From Bifidobacteriaceae bacterium (GTDB lineage Bacteria > Actinomycetota > Actinomycetes > Actinomycetales > WQXJ01), in contig JAITLE010000216.1 in the NCBI GenBank assembly GCA_031278075.1, positions 1-49,429 of the forward strand: DNA of 49,429 nucleotides, read 5' to 3'. The notes under the pieces are model-generated. The model did no database searches. It was given only the letters and a program-made list of their open reading frames with translations, and was not told where the DNA came from. The translations under genes and the position numbers were made by a program. Below are positions 7,516 to 49,429 of the stretch, piece after piece; within the stretch, counting starts at the first letter, position 1; the number at the start of each line of letters is the position of its first letter.

Positions 7516-8109
7516 TCACTGTAACGGTTGGGGCTCCACCGTGCCCCCGGCGGCGATGATCTTGACCCGAGCGGCGGCGGATGCCGCCTGCACCCTGACC
7601 TCCAGCCGGACCGCCACAGCGCCGTCTCCCAGCACCTTGACCGGGCGGCGCGGCCGCACCACGCCCCGCGCCGCGAGGTCCTGAGCGGTCACCACGCCGC
7701 CGCCTGGGTAGAGTTCCTCAAGCCTGTCAAGGTTGACGACCTGATACTCCACGCGGAAGCGGTTCTTGAAGCCGCGCAGCTTCGGCAACCGCATGTGCAA
7801 CGGCATCTGCCCGCCTTCCAGCCGCGCGGGCACCTGCGAACGCGCCTTTGTGCCCTTGGTGCCCCGGCCGGCGGTCTTGCCCTTCGACCCCTCGCCGCGG
7901 CCCACGCGGGTGCGCGCCGTCTTGGCGCCCGGCGCGGGCTTGAGGTGGTGCGCCTTCAACACGTGGGACTTGGCGACCTTGGCGGACGATGCCGACCGGT
8001 CGGGATCGTCCACAACCGTCGCGGCGCCGACCACCGCCTCAGGTGGCGTCGCGGCGCTCTCCAACGGCTCCGCCGCCTGGGCGGGGACCTCGTCTTTCTT
8101 CTTGGCCAT
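7516..8109 (-). CDS. rplO: 50S ribosomal protein uL15 with about 49-aa N-terminal extension
   Basis: Core [36 protein letters not shown]. The ATG at 8109 lies 2 nt after the rpmD stop with GAGGAG 11 nt upstream. A canonical-length start would be the GTG at 7962, which has no SD. Confidence 0.88.
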
Positions 8110-8111
8110 CG

Positions 8112-8297
8112 TCAGTCGATCTCCTCAACGGTCACGAGATGGGCGACTGTGCGAACCATGCCGCGCACCACTGAACTGTCTTCCTTTTCCACGGTCTGGC
8201 CGATCTTCCGCAACCCGAGCGACCGCAGCGTCTCCCGCTGGTTGCGCTGGCCGCCGATTCCGGACTTGACCTGTTTGATTCTGAGCGTGGCCATCAC
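8112..8297 (-). CDS. rpmD: 50S ribosomal protein uL30
   Basis: 61 aa: [36 protein letters not shown]. Overlaps the rpsE stop. Confidence 0.93.
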
Positions 8298-8944
8298 TTC
8301 TCCTCACCGTCGCGGGTCGCCACGACCACGGCTTGGGCCTGGCGCTTGAGCAACGCGGCGGGCGCCACGCGCTCCAGCGGCAGGCCACGGCGCACCGCCA
8401 CAGCCGCCGGCTCCTCCAAAGCGCGCAGAGCGGCGACCGTCGCGTGGGCGATGTTGATCGCGTTGGACGATCCCAACGACTTGGACAGGACGTCGTGGAT
8501 GCCAGCGCACTCGAGGACCGCGCGGACGGGGCCGCCGGCGATCACACCTGTGCCGGGGGCGGCTGGGCGCAAGAAGACCACGCCTGCGGCCGCCTCGCCC
8601 TGGACCGGGTGCGGGATGGTCTGAAGGATGCGCGGCACCTTGAAGAAAGACTTCTTCGCCACCTCGACACCCTTCGCGATCGCCGCCGGCACCTCCTTCG
8701 CTTTGCCGTAGCCGACACCGACTGTCCCGTCGCCGTCGCCCACGACCACCAAGGCCGTGAAAGAGAACCGCCGCCCGCCTTTGACGACCTTGGCGACGCG
8801 GTTGATGGCGACCACGCGCTCGAGGTATTGGCTCCTGTCGTCGTCAGCGCGTGAGCCGCGCCGACCGTCCCGGCGGCCGGAGTCGCGCCGGGCGCCGCCG
8901 CCGTCACGGCCCGCCTGCTCAGGACCTCGCTGCTCTGCAGCCAT
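8294..8944 (-). CDS. rpsE: 30S ribosomal protein uS5 (Arg/Gly/Asp-rich N-terminal extension)
   Basis: 216 aa. Core [45 protein letters not shown]. Confidence 0.95.
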
Positions 8945-31263: not shown

Positions 31264-31546
31264 TGGCTCTCCATCTTGGGTTGGTTGCGGAAGTGATCGG
31301 CTCAGGCGCGCGTGAGCGCGCCGCGCTAGCCCGCCAAGGCAGGCACACGAGCGATTAGGCTACCGCGGCGCCCGACGGCGCGTCAAAGCGAGGGGTCATC
31401 CATGCCCTGGCCATGTCGGCGCCGTGACCCGCCCCGCCGCTGACACCTCAGGGCCAAGCCCAGCCGCAGCGGCGACATGGACGACCCCTGGACAATCCCG
31501 TCAAGGCGCGCGGCGGCGGACCAAGGAGCCGACGGAGCCGCCAGCG

Positions 31547-32776
31547 TCACTCCACCAGGGTCCCCAACTCCCCCAACGCCGCCGTGATCTCGTGGATCGA
31601 CTCCTCGAAGGCCGCCCGGTCCACCGGCGCCACCCCGTTCAGGCAGCGCAGCGCCAACTCCCGCCAACTGGCGATCTGGTCGAGCCCTTGAGCCAGTTGC
31701 CGGTCGATCGGCTCGACCAGCCCCTCCAGCTCGCGCGACAGCCCCAGCCGGGGAACCTGCAGCCGCCACGCGGTCAACAGCTTCTGGAATTGCCCGAACT
31801 GCGCGGAACACCGCGTCACGCCCTCGGAAGTCCAGCGCAGCGCAGCCGACGACTTGGCGACTTGTTCCGCGAGCCGCCCCACGTCATCGTTCATCGCCTC
31901 GCAGAGCGCCGCGATGTGAGCCGAGCCGCCTGCCGGCGCGGCGCCCTCGTGCACCTCCCGGCTGAAACGGATCACCATATCGGTGTGCAGCCGCGCCAGC
32001 GCGATCCCGAAACGCAGCCGCAGCACAGTGGCGCGCACGGCCGCCAAACATTCGGCGAGCGCCGCGACTATCCCGTGCAGGTCGCATCCCAACGCCGTCA
32101 TCGCCTGCGCGGTGGACGCCAGGACCGGCGCCCGCTCCGCGACGCCCGCTGATGCCCGGCACGCGGCCCCGGTCACCTCGCCGAGCGAGTCGATCGTGGC
32201 GGCCAGCTCCTGCGAGGCGATGAGCAACAACTCGGCCAGCGTCTGCAGCGAGCCCAAGCGCCCCAGGACCCCGTCCAGGCGTCGTTGCGAAGCGACGGCC
32301 GCCCGCAGGATGCGTCCCGCCACGCCGCCGATCACCGCGGTCTCGGCCCACTGCGCGGCGGCGGCCACCCGCGCTGCCGTCTCAGCGGGCAACGCCGCCA
32401 GCAAGAACTCCTCGTAACACGCGAAATCCGCTAAGGCCAGCGGCCGTTCCAAGGCGGCGTCCCCGCTGCCAGCCGCCCGATGCCGACCGGCCCCAGCCTC
32501 CCCGCCAGCTCGCTCCACCGACCCGGCGCCGTCGCGCGTCCACCGGCCCGCTTCCCAGGTGGGTTTCGCGCGCGGCGCAGAATGAGCCGGCGGCAGACCC
32601 GCCGGCCCGCCGCCAGCCGAAGCCCAAAAGAAAGCCAACTCGTCCGCGGTCAGCACCCGGGGCGCGCCGCTCAACTCCGTCGGTTCCAGATCTGCCCGCC
32701 ACATGATGGGCCAGCCGTCCGAACTGCGGGTTTGCCGTGTGGCGCCCCGCGTGCGGCTGATCGTCACAACAGCCAT
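31547..32776 (-). CDS. hypothetical protein: low-complexity N-terminus plus uncharacterised helical domain paralogous to the C-terminal domain of the PAS protein at 44714-46135
   Basis: 409 aa. Long colinear similarity to the other copy (LRFGIALARLHTDMVIRF vs LRFRIALAQLHNDMVINF; FQKLLTAWRLQVPRLGLS vs FQKFLTTWRIQVPRFGVS). A possible -10 TATTAT lies at 32881-32886. Confidence 0.6.
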   Translation of the reverse strand: MAVVTISRTRGATRQTRSSDGWPIMWRADLEPTELSGAPRVLTADELAFFWASAGGGPAGLPPAHSAPRAKPTWEAGRWTRDGAGSVERAGGEAGAGRHRAAGSGDAALERPLALADFACYEEFLLAALPAETAARVAAAAQWAETAVIGGVAGRILRAAVASQRRLDGVLGRLGSLQTLAELLLIASQELAATIDSLGEVTGAACRASAGVAERAPVLASTAQAMTALGCDLHGIVAALAECLAAVRATVLRLRFGIALARLHTDMVIRFSREVHEGAAPAGGSAHIAALCEAMNDDVGRLAEQVAKSSAALRWTSEGVTRCSAQFGQFQKLLTAWRLQVPRLGLSRELEGLVEPIDRQLAQGLDQIASWRELALRCLNGVAPVDRAAFEESIHEITAALGELGTLVE

Positions 32777-33026
32777 CTCGCCCTGCCTTCCCTACGCCCG
32801 CCGGATCGGCGCGGCGCCATCCGGTTGCGGCCGACGGACCGGGAAGTCTGGTGCTGGGGGCCTGCCCTGAAAGACCGCGGATAATATTTCTCTTACCGTA
32901 CCGTGTGCCCGGCCGACAGACCTCGCCCTAGGGCCATTCGAGCGGCGCCGATTAGGTGACCTTGCTCACACTCTCCGCACGGGACCCACGACTCGTGGGC
33001 GGCGGGGGCGGCGTGGGCGGCCCAGA

Positions 33027-33053
33027 CCGCGCGCGGGGCGGCCCCGCGCGCGG
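33027..33053 (-). terminator. GC-rich hairpin downstream of rpoC
   Basis: 12-bp perfect stem CCGCGCGCGGGG/CCCCGCGCGCGG with a 3-nt loop, 11 nt after the rpoC stop. A second small hairpin CCCACG/CGTGGG lies at 32985-32999. No U-tract. Confidence 0.5.
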
Positions 33054-33063
33054 CCGGCCAACT

Positions 33064-36000
33064 TCAGTCCACGTAGTCGTCGTAGGGCAGCGGCGGCAGA
33101 TCGCCCAGGATGATGCCGTCCTCGCCGAGCGTCGGATAGTCGACGATCTCCTCGTAGCCGAAGGCGGGATACAACTCAGCCTTCGCCTCGTCGGTGGGCT
33201 CGACCACGACGTGGCGGTACCGCGGCAGACCCGTGCCGGCGGGGATCAGCTTGCCGATGATCACGTTCTCCTTCAAGCCCAGCAGCGAGTCCTGTCGGCC
33301 CGAGATAGCCGCCTCGGTCAGCACCCTGGTGGTCTCTTGGAACGACGCGGCCGAGAGCCACGAGTCCGTCGCCAGGGACGCCTTCGTGATCCCCATCAGC
33401 TCGGAACGGCCCTGCGCGCCTTGCCCGCCCTCAGCGAGGACACGCCGGTTCTCGTCCTCGAACTTGTCGCGCGCGACCAACTCGCCCGGAAGCAGAGTCG
33501 TGTCGTTCGGCTCCAGGACGGTGACCCGCCGCAGCATCTGGCGGACGATCACCTCGATGTGCTTGTCGTGGATGTCCACACCCTGCGACCGGTAGACCGC
33601 CTGGACCTCATGCACCAGGTGCTCCTGGGCTTTGCGCGGGCCCTGGACGCGCAACACCTTCTTCGGGTCCACAGCGCCCACTGTCAACGGCTGGCCCACT
33701 TCGACCGTCTCGCCCTCGGACACCTTCAAGCGCTGCCGCTTCGAGACGATGTACGGGTGCTCTTGGCCGTCGTCGGAGACGATCACGATCTGCCGCAGAC
33801 GCTCCGAATCGTCGATCGAGACCTTGCCGGCGGCCTCCGCGATCGGCGCCTCGCCCTTGGGCGTGCGCGCCTCGAACAGCTCCTGCACGCGGGGCAGACC
33901 CTGTGTGATGTCATCCGCCGCCGCGACGCCGCCCGTGTGGAACGTGCGCATCGTCAGCTGCGTGCCCGGTTCGCCGATCGACTGCGCCGCGATGATCCCG
34001 ACCGCCTCGCCTATGTCGACCAGCTTGCCCGTCGCGAGCGACCGGCCATAGCACTTCGCACACGTCCCCACCCGCGACTCACAGGTCAGCACGGAGCGCA
34101 CCTTGACGCTCTCCACGCCATGCGCGATCAGGTTGTCGATCATCACATCGCCCGCGTCCGCGCCGACCGGCGCCAGGATGCGGCCGTCGGGGCCGACCAC
34201 ATCCGTGGCCAGCGTCCGGGCGAACACCGAGGTCTCCACCTTCGGGTGGCGGAGCGGTTTGCCGTTCGGCCCAGCCTCCGCGATCGGCAGCGTCAGTCCG
34301 CGTTCCGTCCCGCAGTCTTCTTCGCGCACGATCACGTCCTGGGACACATCGACCAACCGCCGGGTCAAATACCCCGAGTCCGCGGTCCGCAACGCGGTGT
34401 CCGCCAAACCCTTGCGGGCGCCGTGGGTGGCGATGAAGTACTCCACCACGGACGGGCCCTCGCGGTAGTTCGACTTGATCGGCCGGGGGATGATCTCGCC
34501 CTTCGGGTCCGCCACCAAACCGCGCATCCCCGCGATCTGCCGGACCTGCATCCAGTTGCCGGCCGCGCCGGAGGAGACCATCCGGTAGACGGTGTTGCGC
34601 TCGGGGAAGTTCTGGCGCATCGCCGCGTCGACCTCGTCGGTCGCTTTGGTCCAGATCTCGATCAGCTCATGGCGCCGCTCGTCGTCGGTGACCAGGCCTT
34701 CGTCGTACTGTTCCTGGATCGCCTCGGCCAACGCCTCGTACCGGTTCAAGATCTCCTGCTTGGACGCCGGCGCCACCACGTCGGAGAAGCTGATCGTCAC
34801 CCCGGAACGGGTCGCCCAGTGGAAACCGGCCTCCTTCAGCGCGTCGAGCGCCGCCGCCACCTCCACCTTCGGGTACTTCTCTGCGAGGTCGTTGACGATG
34901 CCGCTCAGCCGCTTCTTGTCGACCATCTCGTTGACGTAGGGATAGTCGACCGGCAACGCTTCGTTGAACAGCGCGCGCCCGAGAGTCGTCTCCAGATCGA
35001 CTGTCTCCAATTCGGAGCTGGCCACCTCTTCGCCCGGGGCCTGGGGGCGCATGTAGTCGGTCATGCGAATCGTGACATTCGCGCCCAAAGCCAGCTCGTC
35101 GGCATCGTACGCCATGATGGCCTCCGCCACGGAGGAGAACTTCCGGCCCTCGCCCTTCGCCCCGTCGAGCTGGGTCGTCAAGTGGTTGATGCCGATGATC
35201 ATGTCCTGAGTGGGGATGGTCACCGGGCGGCCGTCGGACGGCTTCAGAATGTTGTTGGAGGACAACATCAAGATGCGGGCCTCCGCCTGGGCTTCCGCCG
35301 AGAGCGGCAGGTGGACCGCCATCTGATCGCCGTCGAAGTCCGCGTTGAACGCGCCGCAGACCAACGGGTGCAGGTGGATCGCCTTGCCTTCGACTAGCTG
35401 CGGCTCGAACGCCTGAATGCCGAGCCGGTGCAAGGTCGGAGCACGGTTGAGCAACACCGGGTGTTCGGTGATGACCTCCTCCAACACGTCCCACACCACC
35501 GACTGCTGGCGCTCCACCATCTTCTTGGCGTTCTTGATGTTCTGCGAGTGCTGCAGCTCCACCAGGCGCTTCATGACGAACGGTTTGAACAGCTCCAACG
35601 CCATCGCCTTCGGCAGGCCGCACTGATGCAGCTTCAAGGTCGGCCCCACCACGATCACGCTACGGCCGGAGTAGTCGACCCGCTTGCCCAACAGGTTCTG
35701 GCGGAAACGGCCCTGCTTGCCCTTCAGCATGTCGCTGATGGACTTGAGCGGCCGGTTGCCCGGGCCGGTCACCGGCCGGCCACGCCGCCCGTTGTCGAAC
35801 AGCGAGTCCACGGCCTCCTGGAGCATCCGCTTCTCGTTGTTCACGATGATCTCCGGGGCGCCCAAGTCGATCAAGCGCTTGAGCCGGTTGTTCCGGTTGA
35901 TGACCCGGCGGTACAGGTCGTTCAGGTCGGATGTCGCGAACCGGCCGCCATCTAGCTGAACCATGGGCCGCAGGTCCGGCGGGATCACCGGGATGCAATC

Positions 36001-36942
36001 CAGCACCATGGCCTCCGGCCGGTTGTCGGTCTGCAGGAAGGCGTTGACGACACGCAACCGCTTCAGGGCGCGGATCTTGCGCTGGCCCTTGCCGTTCTTG
36101 ATGATCTCCCTCAGGGTGACCGACTCGCCCTCCAAGTCGAACGTCTCAAGGCGGCGCTGGATCGCGGCGGCGCCCATCGCGCCCTTGAAATAGGACCCGA
36201 ACCGGTCCTGCATCGAGCGGTACAGCAGCTCGTCGCCTTCGAGGTCGGCGACTTTCAGGTTCGCGAAACGATCCCAGATCGCCTCCAGGCGTTCGACTTC
36301 CTTGCGGGCGCGCTCGCGGATCGCGGCCAGCTCACGGCTGGCCGAGGCCTCGACTTTGCGGCCCACGGCCGCCTTGGCGCCCGCGGCCTCCAGGTCCCTC
36401 AAATCAGCGCGGAGCTTGTTCAGCCGCGCGTCCTGGGCCGCCTCGGCGTCACGTTCGATCCTCGCCTGGTCCAGCTCGATCTCGGCCCTGAGCGAGTCCA
36501 GATCGGCGGCGCGGGCCTCCGTGTCCACATCGGTGATCATGTAGGCCGCGAAGTAGATGACCTTCTCCAGGTCCTTCGGCGCCAGGTCCAGCAGGTAGCC
36601 GAGACGCGACGGGACGCCCTTGAAGTACCAGATGTGGGTCACCGGAGCGGCCAGCTCGATGTGCCCCATGCGCTCGCGGCGCACCTTGGACCGGGTCACC
36701 TCGACGCCGCAGCGTTCACAGATGATGCCCTTGAACCGCACCCGCTTGTATTTGCCGCAAGAGCACTCCCAGTCCCGGGTCGGCCCGAAGATCCGTTCGC
36801 AGAACAGCCCTTCCTTCTCGGGCTTCAAAGTGCGGTAGTTGATCGTCTCGGGCTTCTTGACCTCGCCGTGGGACCAGCTGCGGATCTCGTCCGCCGTGGC
36901 CAGCCCAATCTTGATTCCGTCGAAGGTGTTGACGTCCAGCAA
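33064..36942 (-). CDS. rpoC: DNA-directed RNA polymerase subunit beta'
   Basis: 1292 aa: [38 protein letters not shown] ... [12 protein letters not shown]. Confidence 0.98.
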
Positions 36943-36993
36943 GTCAGTCCCTGCTTCCTCGTTCTTTGCGCTTTCGTTAAGTTATGCCTGCCG

Positions 36994-40533
<3,540 letters not shown>

Positions 40534-40665
40534 AGTCCCTCCCGTATAGAAAAAAGCACGCGGCGCAGCACTGAGGCTCAAACATTGAGTGGGCAAGAGG
40601 CACAGGACAGCGCAGGGAGCTAGCCTAGCCTCGAATTCGCGCCTTGTCCAGCGCCGTACGCCCTC

Positions 40666-41880
40666 CTAGTCGACTGCGGTGGTCAACTCGAAGATCGGGA
40701 GGTACAGACAGATCAGGATGGCGCCGACGATCGAGCCCACCATGACGATCAGCACCGGCTCGATGATCGAGGTGATGGCGGTCGTGGCCTGCTGCACCTC
40801 GTCGTCGTAGAACTCGGCGACCTTCTCCAGCATCGAGTCGAGGGCGCCCGCCTCCTCGCCGACCGAGACCATGCGGGAGATCATCGGGCCGAAGATCGGC
40901 TCAGCCGCGATCGCCTTGCCGAGCGAGCTGCCGACGGTGACCTGTTCCTTGACGCGGGCGACGGCATCGGTCACCACCACGTTGCCGGCCGTCTCCCCCG
41001 TGATCTCAAGCGTTTGGACGATCGGCACGCCGACCCGGCTCATGGTGGCGATGGACCGGGACAGCCGGGCCAGGGAGACCTTGAGCAACAAACCGCCTAT
41101 GATCGGCAGCTTCAACTTGATCGGGTCAAGCTTCTCGCGCACCGCGAGATCGTTCTTGTGGTTGCTCCACCACCAGCCCATGAGCAGCAGCAACACGAGG
41201 AGCGGCGCCCCGGCGATCTTCAACAGACCGGACAGGCCGACCAGCACCTTCGTCGGCACCGGCAACTCCTTGCCGAGGTCGGCGAAGATGCCTTCGAAGA
41301 CGGGCACGATGAACAGCAGCATCGCGACGACCACGATCGCGGCGAAGATCAGCACCACGATCGGGTAGACCATCGCGGACTTGACCGCTCGCCGCAGCCG
41401 CAACTCCGCCTCCAGTTGCTCTGCCACCGACGAGAGCACCTGGTCGAGGTAGCCACCGGCCTCGCCCGCGCGGACCATCGCCAGGATCACCGGCGAGAAG
41501 TCCTTCGGGTGTTTGGCCAGCGCGTCCGCCAGGGTGGACCCGGTCTCGACGTCCGAGGCGACTTGGCGGAGCACCTTCTGCAACGCGGTGGAGCCGGTCT
41601 GGTCCGCGATCGCGTTGAGCGACTGGAGCAACGAGAGGCCCGCGTTGACCATCGTGGCGAGCTGGCGGATCGTCACCGCCACGTCCTTCGGCTTGGCGGT
41701 GGAGCTGCCGAAATTGATCTCGGTGTGCAGGCCGCCGCTCGCGGCCTCGCGGATGTCGATCGGGGTGAGACCCGCCTCACGCAGGTGGCGGGCCACCGCC
41801 CGCTGGTCGGGGCCCTCGATCTTGCCGGACTGCGTGGAGCCCCCGGCGATCACTGTGTATTCGAAGGTCTTGGTCGCCAT
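40666..41880 (-). CDS. pilC: type IV pilus platform protein PilC (T2SS-F family)
   Basis: 404 aa. Two T2SSF-type repeats and three hydrophobic segments, with a typical PilC/GspF layout. Confidence 0.9.
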   Translation of the reverse strand: MATKTFEYTVIAGGSTQSGKIEGPDQRAVARHLREAGLTPIDIREAASGGLHTEINFGSSTAKPKDVAVTIRQLATMVNAGLSLLQSLNAIADQTGSTALQKVLRQVASDVETGSTLADALAKHPKDFSPVILAMVRAGEAGGYLDQVLSSVAEQLEAELRLRRAVKSAMVYPIVVLIFAAIVVVAMLLFIVPVFEGIFADLGKELPVPTKVLVGLSGLLKIAGAPLLVLLLLMGWWWSNHKNDLAVREKLDPIKLKLPIIGGLLLKVSLARLSRSIATMSRVGVPIVQTLEITGETAGNVVVTDAVARVKEQVTVGSSLGKAIAAEPIFGPMISRMVSVGEEAGALDSMLEKVAEFYDDEVQQATTAITSIIEPVLIVMVGSIVGAILICLYLPIFELTTAVD

Positions 41881-41886
41881 GGCGGA

Positions 41887-43038
41887 TCACATCCTTCCGA
41901 ATGGATTGTTGAGCCCCGACGCGCCCTGCTGCACCCGGGCGGAACGGCCCAGCATGCGGGCGAACTCATCCGGCATGCGGGCGTTCTCGAGGCCTTCCTC
42001 AAAGGTGATGTCGCCCTGGCGCACCAAGTCGGCCAGCGACTGGTCCAGGGTGTGCATGCCCTCTTCTCCGCCGGAGTGCAGCACGGAGTAGATCTGGTGC
42101 AGCTTGTTCTCGCGGATCATCGCGCGGATCGCGGGAGTCGCCCGCATCAGCTCGGTCGCCACGACCCGGCCACGGCCGTCGGCCCGGCGGCACAAGGTCT
42201 GCGACAGCACCGCCTGAAGGGTGATCGCCAGCTGAGAGCGGATCTGATCCTGGTGGGTCGACTCGAATTGGTCCACCAAGCGGTTGATGGACTGCGCCAC
42301 ACCCTGCGTGTGCAGCGTGGCGAACACGAGGTGGCCGGTCTCGGCGGCGCGCAGCGCGGTCTCCATGGTCTCTTTGTCGCGCAACTCGCCGACCAAGATG
42401 ATGTCCGGGTCTTGGCGCAGCGCGTGCTTCAACGCTTCCGCGAAGGAAAGCGTGTCCACGCCGATCTCGCGTTGAGCCACGAGGCACCGGTTGGAGTTGT
42501 GCTGGTATTCGATCGGATCCTCAATCGTCAAGATGTGCCCCGAGCGAGTCCGGTTCGCCAGGTCGATCACCGCCGCGAGCGTGGTGGACTTGCCGGAGCC
42601 GGTCGGCCCGCAGACCAGCACCAGACCGCGCGGCAGGCCGGCGAACGTCTTGACCACCGCGGGGATGCGCAACTCCTCCAACGGCCGGATGACGTCTGGG
42701 ATGACGCGGAACGCCGCCGCGATCGAGCCGCGGTCCCAGAACAGGTTGGCGCGGAACATGCGCCCGGAGGGCACCTGGCAGGAGTAGTCGAGCTCCAGGT
42801 TGTCGTCGAACTTTTGGCGCTGGGTGCGCGTCAGCATGCCCAAGAGCTGCTCGTAGAGCGCGTCCTCGCCGGGCGCGTCGAAGCCCGGCAGCGGGGTCAG
42901 CTCCCCCGACATCCGCACGATCGGGGGCAGCAGCGCAGTCAAGTGGAGGTCTGACGCGCCCATCGCCGCGGACTCTTCCAAGGCTTGCACCAAGTCAAGC
43001 GTTTGCTCATCGCCGTACACTTCGGCCGCAGCGTTCAT
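41887..43038 (-). CDS. pilT: type IV pilus retraction ATPase PilT
   Basis: 383 aa: GASDLHL ... GPTGSGKSTTLAA ... ILVGELRD ... ATLHT ... AIRAMIRENK (AIRNLIRE-type motif). Confidence 0.92.
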   Translation of the reverse strand: MNAAAEVYGDEQTLDLVQALEESAAMGASDLHLTALLPPIVRMSGELTPLPGFDAPGEDALYEQLLGMLTRTQRQKFDDNLELDYSCQVPSGRMFRANLFWDRGSIAAAFRVIPDVIRPLEELRIPAVVKTFAGLPRGLVLVCGPTGSGKSTTLAAVIDLANRTRSGHILTIEDPIEYQHNSNRCLVAQREIGVDTLSFAEALKHALRQDPDIILVGELRDKETMETALRAAETGHLVFATLHTQGVAQSINRLVDQFESTHQDQIRSQLAITLQAVLSQTLCRRADGRGRVVATELMRATPAIRAMIRENKLHQIYSVLHSGGEEGMHTLDQSLADLVRQGDITFEEGLENARMPDEFARMLGRSARVQQGASGLNNPFGRM

Positions 43039-44717
43039 GCCACCACCCTCAACAGTTCCTCGACGGACGTCTGTCCCTGCGCGACTTTCGCCCAGCCGTC
43101 TTGTCGCAACGTGATCATGCCTTGTTCGCGCGCGAGTTCGCCCAGTTCACGGGTCGACTTGCGCAAAGCCGTGAGGTGTTCCAGCTCCCTGGTCACCGGC
43201 ATCACCTCATGCACCGCGAGCCGGCCCTTGAAGCCGGTGTTGGCGCACGCGGAACAGCCCTTCGGCCGGTACAGGTTGGGCGGCGGCGGCTCCCGGAAAA
43301 TCCAGTCCGCGCGCAGCATCTCCTGCTCCGGCTCGCTCGGCGGGTACGGTTCGCGGCAGCGCTCGCACAGCCGGCGCGCCAGGCGCTGCGCCACCACGCA
43401 GTCCAACGCCGACGCCACGAGGAACGGCTCGATCCCCATCTCCGTCAGGCGGGTCACAGCCGACGGAGCGTCGTTCGTGTGGAGGGTGGACAGCACCAGG
43501 TGGCCGGTCAGGGCCGCCTCGACCGCGATCTGCGCGGTCTCGCCGTCGCGGATCTCGCCGACCAGCACCACATCCGGGTCCGCCCGCAGGATCGACCGGA
43601 GCGCGGCGGCGAACGTCAAGCCCGCCTTCGGGTTGACCTGGACCTGGTTGACCCCAGCCATGCGATACTCCACCGGGTCCTCGATGGTGATCACGTTCAC
43701 CTCGGGCCGCGAGATCTCGCGCAGCGTGGCGTAAAGCGTGGTCGACTTGCCGGAGCCGGTCGGGCCCGTGGCGAGGATCATCCCGTACGGCTTGGTGTAA
43801 GACTTCTTGTATAGCTGGAAAGAGGCCTCCGAGAACGACAACTTGCGGAGGTCGACCTGCACCGCGGAGGTGTTCAGGATACGCATGACGACCTTCTCGC
43901 CCCACACCGTCGGCAAGGTGGCGACGCGCAAGTCCACATCGTTGCCATCCACGTTGACGGAGATGCGGCCGTCCTGCGGCTTGCGCCGCTCGGCGATGTC
44001 GATGTCCGCCATGATCTTGATGCGCGAGATGACTTGCGACTGGATCGACTTCGGCGCGCTTTGCATCTCATGGAGCACACCGTCGATCCGGTAGCGCACG
44101 CGCAGGTCCAATTCCTCCGGCTCCAAGTGGATGTCGGAGCATCCGTCATGGATCGCCTGCGAGATCAGCAGATGCGCCCAGCGGACGACAGGCGAATCCT
44201 CTTGGACGATGTCGGCCACGGAGACGCTGACCTGCTGCCGCTCTTCCTCCCGCGCCGAGGAGTCGAGGGACTGGCCGATCGAGTCGATCTCCGAATCGGA
44301 CCGCACGTGGCGGCCGATCGCGCGTTCCAGGGCGCCGCGTTCGGCGACCGTCGGGATCACCGCGGCGCGCAGATAGGACCGCACGTCATCGATCGCCACC
44401 AGGTTGCCCGGCTCGGCCATCGCCACGACCACCGCGTCGCCCTCGCGGGCGATCGGCAGCAGCAGATGGCGCCGGCAGATCCCGCCGGGCACGGAACCGG
44501 CGACCCTGGGGTCGATCGCGAACGCGTCGAGGTCGACAAACCTCAGACCGGCGGCCTCCGCGAGGATCGGGATGAGGTCCTCCTCGCGCAGGGCGCCACT
44601 GGTGACGAGGGCTTGGCTGAGCGTGATGCCCTCCATCGCCTGGGCGCGGGTCGCCTGATCCAGCTGCGCCTGGGAGACCAGGCCACGGGACAGCAGGGTC
44701 TGCTCAAGGGCGCTCAT
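43035..44717 (-). CDS. pilB: type IV pilus assembly ATPase PilB (GspE family)
   Basis: Track ORF trimmed to the ATG at 44717 (MSALEQTLLSRGLV, 560 aa), an ATGA overlap with the upstream stop. T2SSE N-domain, GPTGSGKSTTLYA, VLVGEIRD, and tetracysteine CERC...CSAC. Confidence 0.92.
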   Translation of the reverse strand: MSALEQTLLSRGLVSQAQLDQATRAQAMEGITLSQALVTSGALREEDLIPILAEAAGLRFVDLDAFAIDPRVAGSVPGGICRRHLLLPIAREGDAVVVAMAEPGNLVAIDDVRSYLRAAVIPTVAERGALERAIGRHVRSDSEIDSIGQSLDSSAREEERQQVSVSVADIVQEDSPVVRWAHLLISQAIHDGCSDIHLEPEELDLRVRYRIDGVLHEMQSAPKSIQSQVISRIKIMADIDIAERRKPQDGRISVNVDGNDVDLRVATLPTVWGEKVVMRILNTSAVQVDLRKLSFSEASFQLYKKSYTKPYGMILATGPTGSGKSTTLYATLREISRPEVNVITIEDPVEYRMAGVNQVQVNPKAGLTFAAALRSILRADPDVVLVGEIRDGETAQIAVEAALTGHLVLSTLHTNDAPSAVTRLTEMGIEPFLVASALDCVVAQRLARRLCERCREPYPPSEPEQEMLRADWIFREPPPPNLYRPKGCSACANTGFKGRLAVHEVMPVTRELEHLTALRKSTRELGELAREQGMITLRQDGWAKVAQGQTSVEELLRVVA

Positions 44718-46135
44718 CGCACACCTCGGGGCATCGCGAGGCCCATCGAGTTGAACACGGCCTGGGTGTGCTCGTAATTGTCGCGGATCACATTGCGCGA
44801 TGCCGCGTTGATTCGACTGAGGATCTCCTCCATCGGGATGCGGTCGAACGGCCGCGCCTCCGCGACGCACGCCCGCGCCAGGTGGCGTAGGGCGTTCAGC
44901 TCTTCGTGGGTGCGGTTGAGCTGCGCGTCGATCGGTCCGACGAGCGGTCCGAGCTGCGCCGACACGCCGAAGCGCGGCACCTGGATGCGCCAGGTGGTGA
45001 GGAACTTCTGGAACTGGGTGAGATGGGCGCCAGCGGATTCGACCTGGGCGCCCACATCGCCGAGCACCCGATGGGCGCTCTCCAAGCCGGATCCGACGGC
45101 TTCGACGTCATCGGCCAGCGCATAGCACAGCAGCGGCACGTACAGGAAGCCCTCCGGCGGCGCGAAGCCGTCCAGGGTCTCGAGGGCGAAGTTGATCACC
45201 ATGTCGTTGTGGAGTTGCGCCAAGGCGATCCTGAAGCGTAGCTCCATCACCCCGAGGCGGATCTGGGAAAGCCGCTCCGGCAAGGGGGCGATGACCTGCT
45301 CCGCCCCCGCGCCGACCTGGGTCATCGCGTTCGCGGTGCTGGCCAAGATGGGAGCGTGGGACGCGACCCGCTGGGAGGCGTTGAGCGAGATCTGCGTGAC
45401 CTCCGCCAGCTGCGCCACGGTGCCGCCGAGCTGCTTCGAGCCGGCCTGCAAAGCTTCCGCCAACTGCTGGAGCGAGTCGAGGCGGCCCAGCAGATCGCCG
45501 ATCAGCTCATCCATCGCGACGGCGTTGTTCAGGATGTCGGCGATGTCGCCGTGCGCCTCGGGCCGGTAGGTCCTCCGCGCCGAGAGCGACACGCGGGTCT
45601 GGGTCTCGGCGGGCAACGCCGTGTACATGAACTCGTCATAGGAGGGGAAGCCCGCGTCGGACAGCATCCCCGCCAGGGAGGTCAAGCCGATCGTGGCGGT
45701 CTTGGACCGGTTGGCGCCTTTCGCCTTCCCGTCCTCCTCGATCGGCAGCGCCTGGCCGTAGAGCCCAAGCGCCGCGTTCCACAGCGGCTCGAATCTTGGC
45801 GAGGAACGGACCGACAAGAAGCCGCTGCCCATTGGCGTGACGGTGGCGAACACCTGATAGTCGAACCCGTCTTTGGCCAGATTCTTGACGTAGGCCGCGA
45901 ACGGTTTCCCGCCCAGCAGGGTGTCCCACATCAGCTTGAAGGCGCCCGCCGGCATCAGCGGGTTGCGAATCAGGTTGTGGGGCGCGCCCATCAACTCGTC
46001 CCGCGGGAACGCGGACAGCCGAGCGAACACGCTGTTGGCCGCGGTTATGACGCCCTTCCTGTCGGTGCAAGAGAAGAACAGCTCGTCGACACCGACCCGC
46101 CGTTCTTGCCCTATGCGGGATTTGCGATCAAGCAT
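44714..46135 (-). CDS. Aer-type PAS domain protein with uncharacterised C-terminal helical domain
   Basis: 473 aa. Residues about 15-115 (ITAANSVFARLSAFPRDELMGAPHNLIRNPLMPAGAFKLMWDTLLGGKPF) match the E. coli Aer FAD-PAS core ([30 protein letters not shown]). The rest is helical, with no canonical MCP hairpin motif and no TM segment. Confidence 0.75.
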   Translation of the reverse strand: MLDRKSRIGQERRVGVDELFFSCTDRKGVITAANSVFARLSAFPRDELMGAPHNLIRNPLMPAGAFKLMWDTLLGGKPFAAYVKNLAKDGFDYQVFATVTPMGSGFLSVRSSPRFEPLWNAALGLYGQALPIEEDGKAKGANRSKTATIGLTSLAGMLSDAGFPSYDEFMYTALPAETQTRVSLSARRTYRPEAHGDIADILNNAVAMDELIGDLLGRLDSLQQLAEALQAGSKQLGGTVAQLAEVTQISLNASQRVASHAPILASTANAMTQVGAGAEQVIAPLPERLSQIRLGVMELRFRIALAQLHNDMVINFALETLDGFAPPEGFLYVPLLCYALADDVEAVGSGLESAHRVLGDVGAQVESAGAHLTQFQKFLTTWRIQVPRFGVSAQLGPLVGPIDAQLNRTHEELNALRHLARACVAEARPFDRIPMEEILSRINAASRNVIRDNYEHTQAVFNSMGLAMPRGVR

Positions 46136-46733
46136 TGCGCAACCTATCCATAGCGACTCGGACCACCGCCACCAAGGCTTGCTTGGCCGCCTCCTTGGAG
46201 CGGGCGTCGGAATACATGATCGGGATGTCGGGGCCGACCGCCAACGCGTCGCGGACGTCCTCGAGGGTGTGCCGCGCTATCCCGTCGAAGCAGTTGATCA
46301 CCACGACGAACGGGATGTTGCGGGACTCGAAATAGTCCACCGCGGTGAACCCTTGGTCCAGGCGGTCGGTGTCGACCAGCACGACGGCGCCGATCGCGCC
46401 GCGCACCAAGTCGTCCCACATGAACAAGAAGCGTTCCTGCCCCGGTGTGCCGAACAGATAGAGCCAGAGCGACTCGCCCAACGCGATCCTGCCGAAGTCC
46501 ATGGCGACCGTCGTGGTGTCCTTCTGCGCGGCCCGCCGGCCGGCATCGTCCACCCCGAGGGAGTGTTCCGTCATGTCGGCTTCTGTGTTGAGCGGCTCGA
46601 TATCTGACACCGCGCCGATAAACGTCGTCTTGCCCACGGCGAAGCCACCCGCGACCACGATCTTGACGACCGTCGGGGGCTTGGTCCTGGTCACTGCGCC
46701 GCTGCGGGCTTGCTCATAGCTCGGATATTGCAT
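46128..46733 (-). CDS. cvnD: conservon-type small Ras-like GTPase (CvnD-like ATP/GTP-binding protein)
   Basis: 201 aa: KIVVAGGFAVGKTTF (P-loop), LYLFGTPGQERF (switch II), VVINCFDG. Confidence 0.85.
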   Translation of the reverse strand: MQYPSYEQARSGAVTRTKPPTVVKIVVAGGFAVGKTTFIGAVSDIEPLNTEADMTEHSLGVDDAGRRAAQKDTTTVAMDFGRIALGESLWLYLFGTPGQERFLFMWDDLVRGAIGAVVLVDTDRLDQGFTAVDYFESRNIPFVVVINCFDGIARHTLEDVRDALAVGPDIPIMYSDARSKEAAKQALVAVVRVAMDRLRNA

Positions 46734-47526
46734 TCAGAACACTCTCCAGTAACTCCAGGGTTTGCTCGCGGCTGACCGCGCCGGCGGTGAGGCCGCCTGC
46801 TCCGGCGACCGTGTCATGAACTAACAGGACGCCCGACTCGGCCAAGTCCGACACCAGGACCTTGACCACCCCGACCGGCAACTTCAAGTGGGCTGAGACT
46901 TCCGCGACCGTCAAATATGTGGTCGCGATCTGCCGGACGATCGCCAACTCCTCGGGCGACAAGCCCTTCCCCTTGTCGGCCAGCCACTGCTGGTTGGCCA
47001 CCTCCAAGATGGACTCGAGCCGGGTGTCGGTGGTGGCCTGGGTGCGGCCCCGTGTCACGACAAACGGCCGGACGGAGGACACGTCATGGTCTTCATTCGG
47101 GGAACCTTCGGGACGTTTGTCCGCCGCGGGCCGCGACCCGGCCGCCTGCGGCGGCAACGAGCCGGTGTGCGTCGGCAGCGAGCCGGTGTGATGCGGCGCC
47201 GTGTTCGTGCCCGCCGCCGGCTCGGGGCCGCGAGCCGGCGGAGTCGGCGGCGAAGCCGAATCGACCGCTTCGGCCTGCGCCGCCCGAGCCGCCCTGGTCC
47301 GCTCCGCCTCACGCGCCGCCGAAGTCAGGGGCCTGCGCCGCTCCACCTGGACAGCCCGCCCGCCGCGCGGCGCTGAAGGCCGCCGCGGCTCGGCCGTGAC
47401 CGGTGGCTCGCCAGGCGCCGGCACCCGGATGTTCGCCGGGTTCGTCAGCGAGTCGAAGGACCGCTCGGCGAGGCGCCCGTCGGGGCGTCCGGCGCGGAGG
47501 CGGGCCTGGGTTTGATCGGGCGTCAC
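46714..47526 (-). CDS. cvnC: DUF742 protein (CvnC-like) with about 150-aa disordered Pro/Ala/Arg-rich N-terminus
   Basis: 270 aa. C-terminal VRPFVVTRGRT ... SPEELAIVRQIATTYLTVAEVSAHLKLPVGVVKVLVSDLAESGVLLV. Confidence 0.8.
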   Translation of the reverse strand: MTPDQTQARLRAGRPDGRLAERSFDSLTNPANIRVPAPGEPPVTAEPRRPSAPRGGRAVQVERRRPLTSAAREAERTRAARAAQAEAVDSASPPTPPARGPEPAAGTNTAPHHTGSLPTHTGSLPPQAAGSRPAADKRPEGSPNEDHDVSSVRPFVVTRGRTQATTDTRLESILEVANQQWLADKGKGLSPEELAIVRQIATTYLTVAEVSAHLKLPVGVVKVLVSDLAESGVLLVHDTVAGAGGLTAGAVSREQTLELLESVLNAISEL

Positions 47527-47978
47527 AGGCCACCTCGCACAGTGCCTGTCGTGGGCAGCGAATCACGCATCTGGGCGATCAGGGCAGGGGTGAGGAACGT
47601 CTCGGCTTTGCCGACCAGGGTGGCCATCTCGTAGCCGACCAGGCCGACATCCGAGTCGGGTTCGCACAGGACTGCCAAGACCGATCCGTTCGAGATCGAC
47701 ATCAGCATCACGAACCCCTCCTCGTATTCGATCACGGACTGGCGGTCACGGCCGATCCCGAGTTCGCGCCCCGCCCCGCGAGCTAGCGAGGACATTCCCG
47801 AGCAGATCGCTGCCATGATGTCGCCGACGGTACGGTCGGCGCCGCCTGACATGGTCATAAGCAGCCCGTCCGCGCTGACGACCACTCCCAGCCTGGCGCC
47901 GGGGGTGGAGCGGACGAACGAGTCGAGGAGCCAGGTCAGGTCCTGCCTGTTCTCCCCGTGCTGGTAGCTGGTGGTCAT
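47523..47978 (-). CDS. cvnB: roadblock/LC7 domain protein (CvnB-like, MglB-type fold)
   Basis: 151 aa: LTWLLDSFVRSTPGARLGVVVSADGLLM ... SVIEYEEGFVMLMSISNGSVLAVL. The ATG is preceded by AAGGAGGAATC. Confidence 0.85.
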   Translation of the reverse strand: MTTSYQHGENRQDLTWLLDSFVRSTPGARLGVVVSADGLLMTMSGGADRTVGDIMAAICSGMSSLARGAGRELGIGRDRQSVIEYEEGFVMLMSISNGSVLAVLCEPDSDVGLVGYEMATLVGKAETFLTPALIAQMRDSLPTTGTVRGGL

Positions 47979-48043
47979 GAGATTCCTCCTTGAATGGGCG
48001 AGCTGGTGATCCCTTGCGGCGTTGCGGGGTTGGCGTTCATGCC

Positions 48044-49429
48044 TTACCCCTTACCGGCCGGCGCGCGGGATCCGCTGCGGCCACGCCTGGTGCCGAGTTG
48101 GAAAGCAGAGAGCGCCGACCGGATCTTGTCGGCGTCGCGGGCCTTGGGCGGCACTTTGGCGGGTTCCGCCACAGCAGGCACGGATGAGGCGCCCGATTGC
48201 CGCCGCGCCAAGCTGGAGGCGGGCCTCGACTCGGTCTTCTCTGGCTTGTAGGTGTTCAGCCCCGCCAATTCAGCGAGGGCCTCCTCCTGGATTGTGGCTC
48301 TCAGCGCGATCGCCGAACCGGCGATCGACGAGTTGAGATCCGGGATCGCCAGCGCCGCGTCGCCCCCGCCGCCTGGTTGCATGGTTCCGCCCGGTGAGAA
48401 GCCGCCCGTGGGCCGCCCGGTGGACGATGCCGTCCGGCCGTCCCCCGACATCGGCAACGGTCCCGTCGGGCCGACCGGGGCACGGGTCGGCAGCACGGGG
48501 CCGCTGGGGCCGCTTCGGACATCTTGGACACCGGGGGCGGCGCCGGGGCCGCCGCCCGGGAAGCCGGGCGCTGCGCCGAGATCCCCGGGAATCGGCGGGA
48601 GGCCGAGCGCGGGTCCCGGTGTGATGATCGCCGGCGCGGCGAATCCCGTCCGACCGCTTGGGCCGGGGCTCGCGCCGTCCGGGCTCGCGGCGCCGGGGCT
48701 CGGCTGACCGGGCGGAATGCCCGGTCCGGGGATGGAGCCTGGCGCGGGGAAGGCTGGCGCGCCACCGGGCGTGAAGGTCGGGGAGCCGGGCGGCGCCGCG
48801 GGCCCGCTCGGCGGCTGCGCGGGCGCGAAGCCGCCCACGGGGGCGGCCGGCCCCGCCGCTGGGCCGACTGCGACCGCAGGCGCCGGCTGGGCGGTCCGGT
48901 GTGCCGCCTGGGGCACACCGGGCCGGCTGAGCGGCGGGGCGGCGCCAATCGGCGGGATCAAGCCGGGTGGCACGGTGACATTCGGCGCGATGGCGCCGGG
49001 CGCGCTCGGCACCGGCGGGAAGGCCTCCAGCGGCCGGGCGACAAGGGGCCGGCGGGCCGTCGCCGGGCGGCGCGCCATCGGCGCGTCGGACCCGATGGGC
49101 CGCTCGCCGGTGGCTAGGGCTTCGGACAAGGCGGGCAGGTCTCCCGCCGGCGGCGCCGCAGCCCCGGGGCGGGCGGTCGGCCGCGCCCTATGCCCCGCCG
49201 GCTGGGCTGGTCCCGCCGGGGCGCCTCCGAAAGGGAACTGAGTTCCGGGGCCCGCGGGTCCCGGCGGCCTGATGACCGGTGGCGCCGTGGCGCCAGTCCT
49301 GTCGTGGAGAGCCTGCCCGTCCGCGGAATGGCGGGGCAAGACGGAACTCGGGTTCGCGCCCTCGCCCAGCGGCGTGAAACGCGCCCCGAGCGGCACTATC
49401 CCCATCCCGCCGGGCCGGTCCGTCGGGTC
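48044..49429 (-). CDS. partial CDS (5' end outside the window): Pro/Gly/Ala-rich C-terminal tail, probably of a CvnA-like sensor-kinase-like protein
   Basis: The reading frame is open to the window edge. More than 450 aa of low complexity, ending ...KIRSALSAFQLGTRRGR.... Assignment rests only on the conservon gene order cvnA-B-C-D; no catalytic domain is visible. Confidence 0.4.
   Translation of the reverse strand, partial: DPTDRPGGMGIVPLGARFTPLGEGANPSSVLPRHSADGQALHDRTGATAPPVIRPPGPAGPGTQFPFGGAPAGPAQPAGHRARPTARPGAAAPPAGDLPALSEALATGERPIGSDAPMARRPATARRPLVARPLEAFPPVPSAPGAIAPNVTVPPGLIPPIGAAPPLSRPGVPQAAHRTAQPAPAVAVGPAAGPAAPVGGFAPAQPPSGPAAPPGSPTFTPGGAPAFPAPGSIPGPGIPPGQPSPGAASPDGASPGPSGRTGFAAPAIITPGPALGLPPIPGDLGAAPGFPGGGPGAAPGVQDVRSGPSGPVLPTRAPVGPTGPLPMSGDGRTASSTGRPTGGFSPGGTMQPGGGGDAALAIPDLNSSIAGSAIALRATIQEEALAELAGLNTYKPEKTESRPASSLARRQSGASSVPAVAEPAKVPPKARDADKIRSALSAFQLGTRRGRSGSRAPAGKG

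Follow-up and report, generated by a model that had tools for sequence, protein, structure and literature searches.

A probable flavin-binding PAS protein with a putatively chemoreceptor-derived helical tail, encoded between conservon and type IV pilus genes

In some conservons, now called actinobacterial G-protein systems, cvnD is followed by a fifth gene, which encodes a GAF-type protein (CvnF) or a P450-type protein (CvnE) (2026, PMC13343842). Both kinds are found alongside a CvnA that has no sensory domain, and CvnF8 was shown to bind CvnA8 and to stimulate autophosphorylation of CvnA8 (PMC13343842). In the PAS structure of Escherichia coli Aer (8DIK), flavin adenine dinucleotide (FAD) is contacted by H53, R57, M69, W70, N85 and R115 (PMC9668731), and in the bipartite CetA/CetB energy taxis of Campylobacter, CetB acts as a protein of its own together with CetA, a membrane methyl-accepting chemotaxis protein (MCP) (PMC2628428). 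Here we describe a gene in a 49,429-nt stretch of DNA ("the window", contig JAITLE010000216.1 of assembly GCA_031278075.1, a Bifidobacteriaceae bacterium) that lies between a cvnD-like gene and pilB and encodes a PAS domain followed by a helical double-hairpin bundle. Neither a GAF nor a cytochrome P450 domain was detected in this protein, only PAS, and therefore, if it is an accessory protein in the fifth-gene position, it would represent a new class.

Our preferred reading, which we believe and doubt in about equal measure, is that the protein is a redox sensor and a third class of conservon accessory sensor, in which a flavin PAS domain and an MCP-derived pseudo-dimer would act through CvnA on pili. 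We infer four parts of this reading, namely flavin binding, the single-chain pseudo-dimer geometry, CvnA as the partner and the pilus as the output.

The PAS domain and its flavin site

The gene and the parts of its product are as follows.

44714..46135, minus strand: PAS plus double-hairpin gene, a single open reading frame of 473 aa with an ATG start; coordinates exact
45794..46090, minus strand: Aer-type PAS core, residues 16-114, probably FAD-binding (phmmer, Foldseek, conserved FAD contacts)
45584..45790, minus strand: three short helices, residues 116-184, with the motif GF.SYDEFM..ALPAE (AlphaFold helices 116-138, 143-160 and 166-184)
45173..45550, minus strand: hairpin 1, residues 196-321, with the tip equivalent at residues 257-261 (45353-45367) (AlphaFold and profile comparison)
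45140..45172, minus strand: connector, residues 322-332, DGFAPPEGFLY, at the predicted PAS-proximal end of the bundle (AlphaFold loop)
44780..45139, minus strand: hairpin 2, residues 333-452, with the tip equivalent at residues 389-391 (44963-44971) (AlphaFold and profile comparison)

The AlphaFold2 model of the protein, built on an input alignment of 37 homologues, has a predicted local distance difference test score (pLDDT) of 91.9 and a predicted template modelling score (pTM) of 0.89, and shows a PAS domain, then a helical linker, then the double-hairpin bundle. Close relatives of full length and 83-92% identity are present in ten metagenome-assembled genomes (MAGs) labelled Bifidobacteriaceae. 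The 473-aa protein is predicted to be soluble and cytoplasmic: no transmembrane segment was found in it (the peak 19-residue Kyte-Doolittle mean is 1.23), and neither a HAMP nor an MCPsignal domain matched it, even at E<=1 (Pfam, NCBIfam), in agreement with an earlier note on this DNA, which had seen no membrane segment and no HAMP-like linker.

The N-terminal ~115 aa had been likened to the PAS core of Aer, and phmmer indeed places residues 16-114 on the PAS domain of E. coli Aer (E=1.3e-18 for 8dik_A and E=5.9e-17 for Aer in full length, 31cj), with further matches to MmoS (E=1.2e-11) and NifL (E=2.9e-5); the stretch GAPHNLIRNPLMPAGAFKLMWDTLLGGKPF, quoted in the earlier note, falls inside this alignment. 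Foldseek of the AlphaFold model likewise ranked 8dik first (TM-score 0.89 on the target, root-mean-square deviation 1.3 Å, 39% identity), with NifL, MmoS and LOV domains next in the list. The Pfam PAS models barely register on the same protein (E~0.07) while the match to Aer is strong, which suggests that the resemblance is specific to the flavin-binding, Aer-type PAS. All six FAD contacts of Aer are kept, with H53, R57, M69, W70, N85 and R110 as their counterparts in the window protein (R110 corresponds to Aer R115); across the 37 homologues H53, R57, W70 and R110 are invariant and M69 and N85 are at least 90% conserved. That five of these residues (H53, R57, M69, W70 and N85) bear the same numbers in Aer and in the window protein is a coincidence of numbering. 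The PAS domain thus most likely binds FAD, judging by the sequence, and the retention of every contact residue together with the lack of a transmembrane segment lends sequence-level support to the proposal of a soluble redox sensor that had been made for this protein.

The three short helices after the PAS core appear to belong with it. In tblastn, stand-alone PAS proteins of ~170 aa as well as Aer-type MCPs match the window protein up to residues ~170-181, suggesting that the PAS core and the three helices together correspond to a CetB/Aer-F1-like module. Such stand-alone Aer-like PAS proteins, with the end motif G..YDEFV.SL, occur in many genomes (L041, L051, L061, L078, L081 and others, at ~8001-8500); they equal residues 1-181 of the window protein, at 38-43% identity, and in one locus (L076) the gene for a ~170-aa PAS protein adjoins an MCP gene in a CetB/CetA-like pair.

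Descent of the helical tail

Past the PAS domain, ~340 aa are predicted with high confidence to be all-helical (AlphaFold2). The Ala/Leu/Gln-rich helices of the earlier description are borne out as to helix, Ala (14%) and Leu (12%), while Gln is only moderate (6%; all for residues 160-473). The model has four long antiparallel helices of ~60 residues each with short loops at 257-261, 322-332 and 389-391, and since these four helices are consecutive and antiparallel, both tip equivalents would lie at one end of the bundle, with the connector, the chain ends and the PAS module presumably at the opposite end. Such an arrangement, read from the secondary-structure string and the loop positions of the monomer model, would make the tail a single-chain four-helix bundle resembling the connectivity of an MCP dimer. 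Each hairpin is ~125 aa long, with only ~9 heptads per arm, and both lie within one chain, unlike the one long homodimerising hairpin of an MCP; a methylation-helix region is missing. The connector region differs in length across the family alignments.

Direct searches with the tail returned little. Foldseek of a tail-only model (pLDDT 90.4) against the PDB gave nothing at E<1e-3, the best matches being generic bundles (TTYH2, the haptoglobin-haemoglobin receptor, de novo maquettes) with a TM-score of at most 0.45 on the query and E>=2.8e-3, and the best-fitting PDB folds were single-chain four-helix maquettes. A tail profile searched against PDB sequences yielded weak coiled-coil matches only, and the tail with 16 homologues matched nothing in Pfam or NCBIfam, neither of which has a model for it. 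All of this is what would be expected if the tail were an unrelated new fold and its similarity to MCPs coiled-coil noise, an explanation that we nevertheless regard as distinctly improbable in view of the profile comparisons that follow.

The starting lead was an alignment of the window protein with its distant homologues and with true Aer-type MCPs from the same scan. Members from outside the Actinobacteria hold two segments that resemble the MCP tip, for example VRLLALNAMIAAARLEREGDVLGAVARML and LQVAQLGGRVESARLVRQDGFEAVFANIRRQI, and these coincide with the short AlphaFold loops 257-261 and 389-391 of the window protein. We refer to the less-decayed non-actinobacterial members as the MCP-like subgroup. 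The Pfam MCPsignal model (PF00015) finds the first segment below threshold in six of eight individual subgroup proteins (best E=2.5e-5), and distant members reach 12-25 bits against a gathering cut-off of 34.6. When hairpin 1 of the subgroup (21 proteins) was compared with 27 genuine MCP signalling domains, hhalign aligned tip on tip at 97.6% (P=3.7e-12), with the subgroup consensus LNa.i.AarLGe.G..L.vIA in register with the MCP tip motif. Reversed controls gave P~0.05, and 30 heptad-block shuffles reached a maximum score of 42 against the real 76. It is this comparison, with the tip in register and the shuffles far below, together with the MCPsignal matches to the same segment in single sequences, that speaks against coiled-coil noise and hence against a new fold.

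The two hairpins also resemble each other: subgroup hairpin 1 aligned with subgroup hairpin 2 at 89.7% (P=1.8e-6), with a score of 33 against at most 24 in all 30 shuffles. To carry these results over to the window protein, we used an actinobacterial alignment of 210 sequences that includes it and was kept strictly separate from the subgroup. Actinobacterial hairpin 1 matched subgroup hairpin 1 at 98.4% (P=5e-15) and actinobacterial hairpin 2 matched subgroup hairpin 2 at 93.2% (P=3e-7), the window clade and the subgroup being homologous end to end (hidden Markov model E~1e-30). These comparisons of sequence profiles argue strongly that hairpin 1 descends from the MCP signalling tip and give moderate support to hairpin 2 as a diverged tandem duplicate of hairpin 1. 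In Actinobacteria the tip consensus appears to have decayed beyond direct recognition, and PF00015 on the window protein does not pass its gathering threshold and has no match at E<=1. The earlier note had left a choice between a very degenerate MCP bundle and a new fold; our results favour the former, by a transitive argument only and with two tandem hairpins per chain, and disfavour the latter. Its statement that the invariant MCP hairpin motif is lost agrees with what we see, as the survivors of the motif are limited to an Arg (R256, R388), small residues and a Leu in place of the Phe. By contrast, RFRIALAQLHNDMV, which it had picked as the stretch closest to that hairpin, maps to residues 300-313 in the ascending arm of hairpin 1 and is not a tip equivalent. 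A zinc-binding CZB site (H309...C338) was also considered for the tail and was dropped, since several members have Ala in place of the Cys and there is no subsequent HxxxH.

The conservon, the pilus genes and the proposed circuit

The genes around the PAS gene in the window are as follows.

48044..49429, minus strand: cvnA-like, histidine-kinase-like, the C-terminal 461 codons with a Pro/Ala-rich tail; the reading frame is open to the window edge
47523..47978, minus strand: cvnB-like, Roadblock/LC7 (MglB-type) (Pfam PF03259, E=2.8e-17)
46714..47526, minus strand: cvnC-like, DUF742 (Pfam PF05331, E=6.6e-23, residues 150-265); start codon uncertain
46128..46733, minus strand: cvnD-like small GTPase (Pfam PF03029, E=7.5e-26)
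43035..44717, minus strand: pilB, type IV pilus extension ATPase (Pfam T2SSE, E=1.7e-138; MshEN, E=6.4e-19)
41887..43038, minus strand: pilT-like retraction ATPase (Pfam T2SSE, E=1.3e-45)
40666..41880, minus strand: pilC platform protein (Pfam T2SSF, E=7.3e-63)

On the minus strand the order is thus cvnA-B-C-D, the PAS gene, pilB, pilT and pilC, with rpoB and then rpoC downstream. The ATG of the PAS gene lies within the last codons of cvnD (ATGCTTGA, an 8-nt overlap), and its stop codon overlaps the pilB start (ATGA). The longest pilB reading frame would begin at a GTG at 44870 and overlap the PAS gene by 157 nt; the true pilB start is likely the ATG at 44717, which fits the 558-aa PilB of a sister contig. 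That sister MAG contig (L083) carries pilD, pilM, two small proteins (one weakly PilO-like), an RCC1-repeat gene, cvnA-D, the PAS gene, pilB, pilT and pilC. A MAG with a 49%-identical protein keeps the order cvnA-B-C-D-PAS-pilB with the same overlaps, and a 46%-identity relative shows cvnA-B-C-D-PAS up to the end of its contig; in all three of these loci (L083, L086 and L087) the PAS gene stands directly 3' of cvnD. In an Actinomycetaceae genome, the gene for a 450-aa CvnA-like protein with a single transmembrane helix (blastp E=1e-9) overlaps the start of a family member, and neither cvnB-D nor pilB lies in the vicinity.

The CvnA that goes with these genes is of a sensor-less build, as judged from its orthologue and relatives, the N-terminus of the cvnA-like protein lying beyond the window edge. 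On the sister contig (L083 5658-8237) it has 859 aa, one N-terminal transmembrane helix (~27-46), a Pro-rich spacer, a HATPase_c domain (residues 287-392, E=1.9e-11) and a long Pro/Ala tail, with no NIT or HAMP domain detected, and its counterparts in the 49%-identity MAG (L087) and in the Actinomycetaceae genome (L089) are built alike, with a single N-terminal transmembrane helix and no NIT domain. In the proposed mechanism, the redox state of the flavin would shift the conformation of the PAS domain, and the change would pass to the bundle, as it does in Aer from PAS to HAMP and the kinase-control module. The bundle would then modulate the sensor-less, membrane-anchored CvnA, as the GAF protein CvnF does in Streptomyces, and CvnA, by way of CvnB and CvnC, would set the nucleotide state of the MglA-like GTPase CvnD, which in turn would control pilus extension and retraction by PilB and PilT; these two are taken as the output because the operon is embedded among pilus genes. 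Extended to a whole circuit, this would be a Che-independent energy taxis for type IV pili in Actinobacteria, running from the flavin PAS and a duplicated MCP tip through CvnA and an MglA/MglB-like switch to PilB/PilT, which we put forward tentatively as a possibility. The MshEN domain of PilB could provide a second input, as this module binds cyclic di-GMP (c-di-GMP) elsewhere.

The same gene order can be read in the opposite direction, with the PAS protein as an output or adaptor that is bound by GTP-loaded CvnD and then acts on PilB, its flavin PAS domain gating the interaction. The gene does lie between cvnD and pilB with overlapping stop and start codons on both sides, and the order cvnD-PAS-pilB is kept at 49% identity. 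There is moreover a precedent in MfpA, whose gene follows a mycobacterial conservon and which is bound by that conservon's GTPase, MfpB (PMC4316618), and MglA-type GTPases of Myxococcus are known to promote type IV pilus formation via adaptor proteins (works cited in PMC13343842; PMC11580455). At the same time, PAS-type sensor domains are typical of inputs, the operon-linked CvnA is of the sensor-less type that the accessory-sensor rule predicts, and in the Actinomycetaceae genome the family gene directly follows a CvnA-like gene where neither cvnB-D nor pilB is near. We therefore consider an adaptor role unlikely. The suggestion that the protein acts on the GTPase or the pilus ATPases rather than on CheA/CheW, made earlier from its position, gains from the overlaps and the conserved order, while CvnA would be at least as likely a target and most relatives stand alone.

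Members of the family are far more widespread than this operon. A word-indexed search found more than 200 full-length relatives, annotated for their PAS domain only, in Cellulomonas, Xylanimonas, Cellulosimicrobium, Streptosporangium, Amycolatopsis, Kineosporiaceae, Actinomycetaceae and Arsenicicoccus. A tail profile built from 16 actinobacterial sequences matched at least 811 clusters (50% identity) at E<=1e-3 and 544 at E<=1e-10, and in nearly all of them the tail begins at residue ~116-127 of a ~450-aa protein; the longer members (570-888 aa) held no additional Pfam domain and thus no "Rosetta stone" fusion. A scan of reference genomes added full-length members in Propionibacteriaceae, Demequina, Corynebacterium glucuronolyticum and Thermoleophilia, and outside the Actinobacteria members were found in Verrucomicrobiota, Bdellovibrio, Planctomycetota, Dehalococcoidia, Myxococcales and Alphaproteobacteria. 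Tandem pairs of family members were seen in an Opitutia MAG (L019 6111-9278) and a Phycisphaerales MAG (L023 6418-8984). In a rough neighbour-joining tree, the members linked to cvn genes fall into several sub-branches, mixed with stand-alone ones.

Several results weigh against the sensor reading given above. In the flavin site, the Aer motif RHPDMP, which contains H58 and D60, is RNPLMP in the window clade, with Asn and Leu at these two positions. Older mutagenesis of Aer linked both positions to FAD binding, and the change places some doubt on cofactor affinity in this clade (the family consensus at the site is RHPDMP, with H58 kept and position 60 variable). In the tail, hairpin 2 was marginal against MCPs (P=1.4e-4 untrimmed; a trimmed score of 21.8 against a shuffle maximum of 20.3), and the actinobacterial clade compared with MCPs directly gave hhalign P~0.02, the same as reversed controls, so that we claim the MCP link only through the intermediates. 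Our monomer model could, in addition, show intermolecular contacts as intramolecular ones, which bears on the pseudo-dimer. As for gene context, the family gene was stand-alone in 25 reference-genome loci, which had no neighbour in common, in 80 metagenome loci and in three look-ups (P0022, P0032, P0042), one of them in Cellulomonas. In tblastn searches around 80 genome loci and the 80 metagenome loci, no same-strand cvn or pil gene turned up except in the lineages described above. Most family members being stand-alone, the core function of the family cannot depend on cvn or pil.

Because so many relatives lack cvn or pil neighbours, the protein could be a general stand-alone redox sensor that has its partners elsewhere or associates with itself, its place beside the conservon and the pilus genes being an accident of one lineage. 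Apart from the large majority of sampled members without conserved neighbours, this explanation is favoured by a second copy at an unrelated position of the same genome, between rpoC and rpsL:

31547..32776, minus strand: second double-hairpin copy, PAS not recognisable (tblastn, 38% identity over residues 66-445)

The first ~130 residues of this copy are of low complexity, with no PAS-like sequence in any frame, and its DNA similarity to the sister copy is limited to the helical part; in the sister MAG, the copy between rpoC and rpsL (P0014) is intact and includes the PAS domain. The second copy is either a gene in decay or a bundle protein that lacks PAS. A stand-alone sensor is harder to square with the overlapping stop and start codons, which indicate co-translation with cvnD and pilB, with an arrangement kept at 46-49% identity, and with the independent CvnA-like adjacency in a deep-branching member, and we find it rather doubtful.

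Its MCP ancestry and its label at JGI, where family members are called "aerotaxis receptor", might suggest that the protein functions as a soluble chemoreceptor like AerC and CetZ, coupled to CheA/CheW encoded elsewhere. The window protein has no MCPsignal match at E<=1, however, its clade scores against MCPs like reversed controls, the tip consensus is gone, and with ~9 heptads per arm the methylation region is missing. The family is also present in C. glucuronolyticum, and Corynebacterium is not known to be motile. By tblastn there was no CheW-like or MCP-like sequence in the window (with one CheW query sequence; CheA was not searched for) and, with the same query, no CheW in 169 retrieved loci; the earlier statement that neither CheA nor CheW is present in the window can thus be upheld for CheW, with that query. 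Given the lost tip consensus, the very short hairpins and the lack of a CheW hit, we hold a CheA/CheW-coupled receptor to be very improbable.

Some further features of these loci deserve mention. A complete type IV pilus cluster with a conservon directly upstream of rpoB-rpoC is an unusual insertion into a highly conserved neighbourhood (window 31500-49429; L083, L084), and the paralogue between rpoC and rpsL is likewise unusual for so conserved a gene neighbourhood. The cvnC-like reading frame has 270 aa in the window against a 131-aa product called on the sister contig, and the Pro/Ala-rich N-terminal extension of this DUF742 protein could be spurious, produced by a frame that happens to stay open in high-GC sequence. 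The Pro/Ala-rich C-terminal tail of the cvnA-like protein is ~450 aa long and ends in a conserved segment, and an LPRR sequence in this protein fits the "LPxR" motif reported for conservon kinases. On the sister contig (L083 3639-5579), outside the window, the gene for a 646-aa RCC1-repeat (WD40_RLD) protein separates the pilM/N/O-like genes from cvnA; in eukaryotes RCC1 is a GTPase exchange-factor fold. Five metagenome loci (L107, L109, L110, L111, L115) have a convergent gene for a NIT-type CvnA, 1-5 kb downstream on the opposite strand, with at least a DUF742 gene beside it in L107. This may be chance or a looser tie of the family to conservons; we judged the association weak or coincidental, as this CvnA has a sensor of its own and a TetR gene intervenes in one case.

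Comparison with known systems

Each component of the locus has known relatives: the Aer PAS domain, the MCP tip, the conservon and type IV pili. A PAS-type conservon accessory protein, a conservon within a pilus cluster and a tandem single-chain MCP tip went unmentioned in the conservon paper, in a 2014 survey of prokaryotic small GTPases, in a 2026 review of aerotaxis receptors and in full-text searches. Our analysis offers an evolutionary identity for a widespread ~340-aa tail (at least 811 clusters) that has so far been labelled "PAS domain-containing protein", and it suggests an unusual repurposing of a scaffold, in which a chemoreceptor tip was apparently duplicated into one chain and freed from CheA/CheW. 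It also points to a redox or energy-state input and a type IV pilus output for a conservon, a kind of system whose inputs and targets are largely unknown. If correct, the reading would add a third class of conservon accessory protein and a previously undescribed MCP-derived domain family that spans several phyla, and it yields testable predictions on flavin content, on binding to CvnA, CvnD or PilB, and on a piliation phenotype.

Among sensors, E. coli Aer is the closest in its PAS domain (39% identity, TM-score 0.89, the best match among solved structures) and shares with the window protein the FAD contacts and the succession of PAS domain, helices and MCP-derived bundle; in both, the signal that is sensed is presumably flavin redox state. 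Aer has, in addition, a membrane anchor, a HAMP domain, a canonical dimerising two-helix kinase-control hairpin and signalling through CheA/CheW, whereas the window protein is predicted to be soluble, lacks HAMP, has two short, decayed hairpins per chain and was found in no Che context. AerC and CetZ (Tlp8) resemble it more in being cytoplasmic and in combining an FAD-type PAS domain with an MCP-type helical domain, but they carry a pair of PAS domains, and their MCP signalling domain is complete and canonical and scores above the Pfam thresholds. Stand-alone PAS proteins of the CetB type match residues 1-181 in length and in the end motif G..YDEF..., the difference from CetB/CetA being that in the window protein the PAS module is fused to a bundle of its own.

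In gene context, CvnF and CvnE provide the nearest parallel: a fifth gene after cvnD, a CvnA without an extracytoplasmic sensor, and a cytoplasmic sensor without catalytic output. CvnF has a GAF domain and CvnE is a P450, while the window protein has a putative flavin PAS domain and an MCP-derived bundle, a combination that the described classes do not include (PMC13343842); the conservon in the window, moreover, sits among type IV pilus genes and not beside genes of secondary metabolism. The Frz-MglA/MglB system of Myxococcus similarly brings together a cytoplasmic MCP-type protein, a kinase, a Roadblock protein, an MglA-type GTPase and PilB/PilT. Its parts are not orthologous to those described here, CvnA not being a CheA, CheW being missing and the genes being contiguous in the window, and the resemblance between the two systems is one of analogy only.

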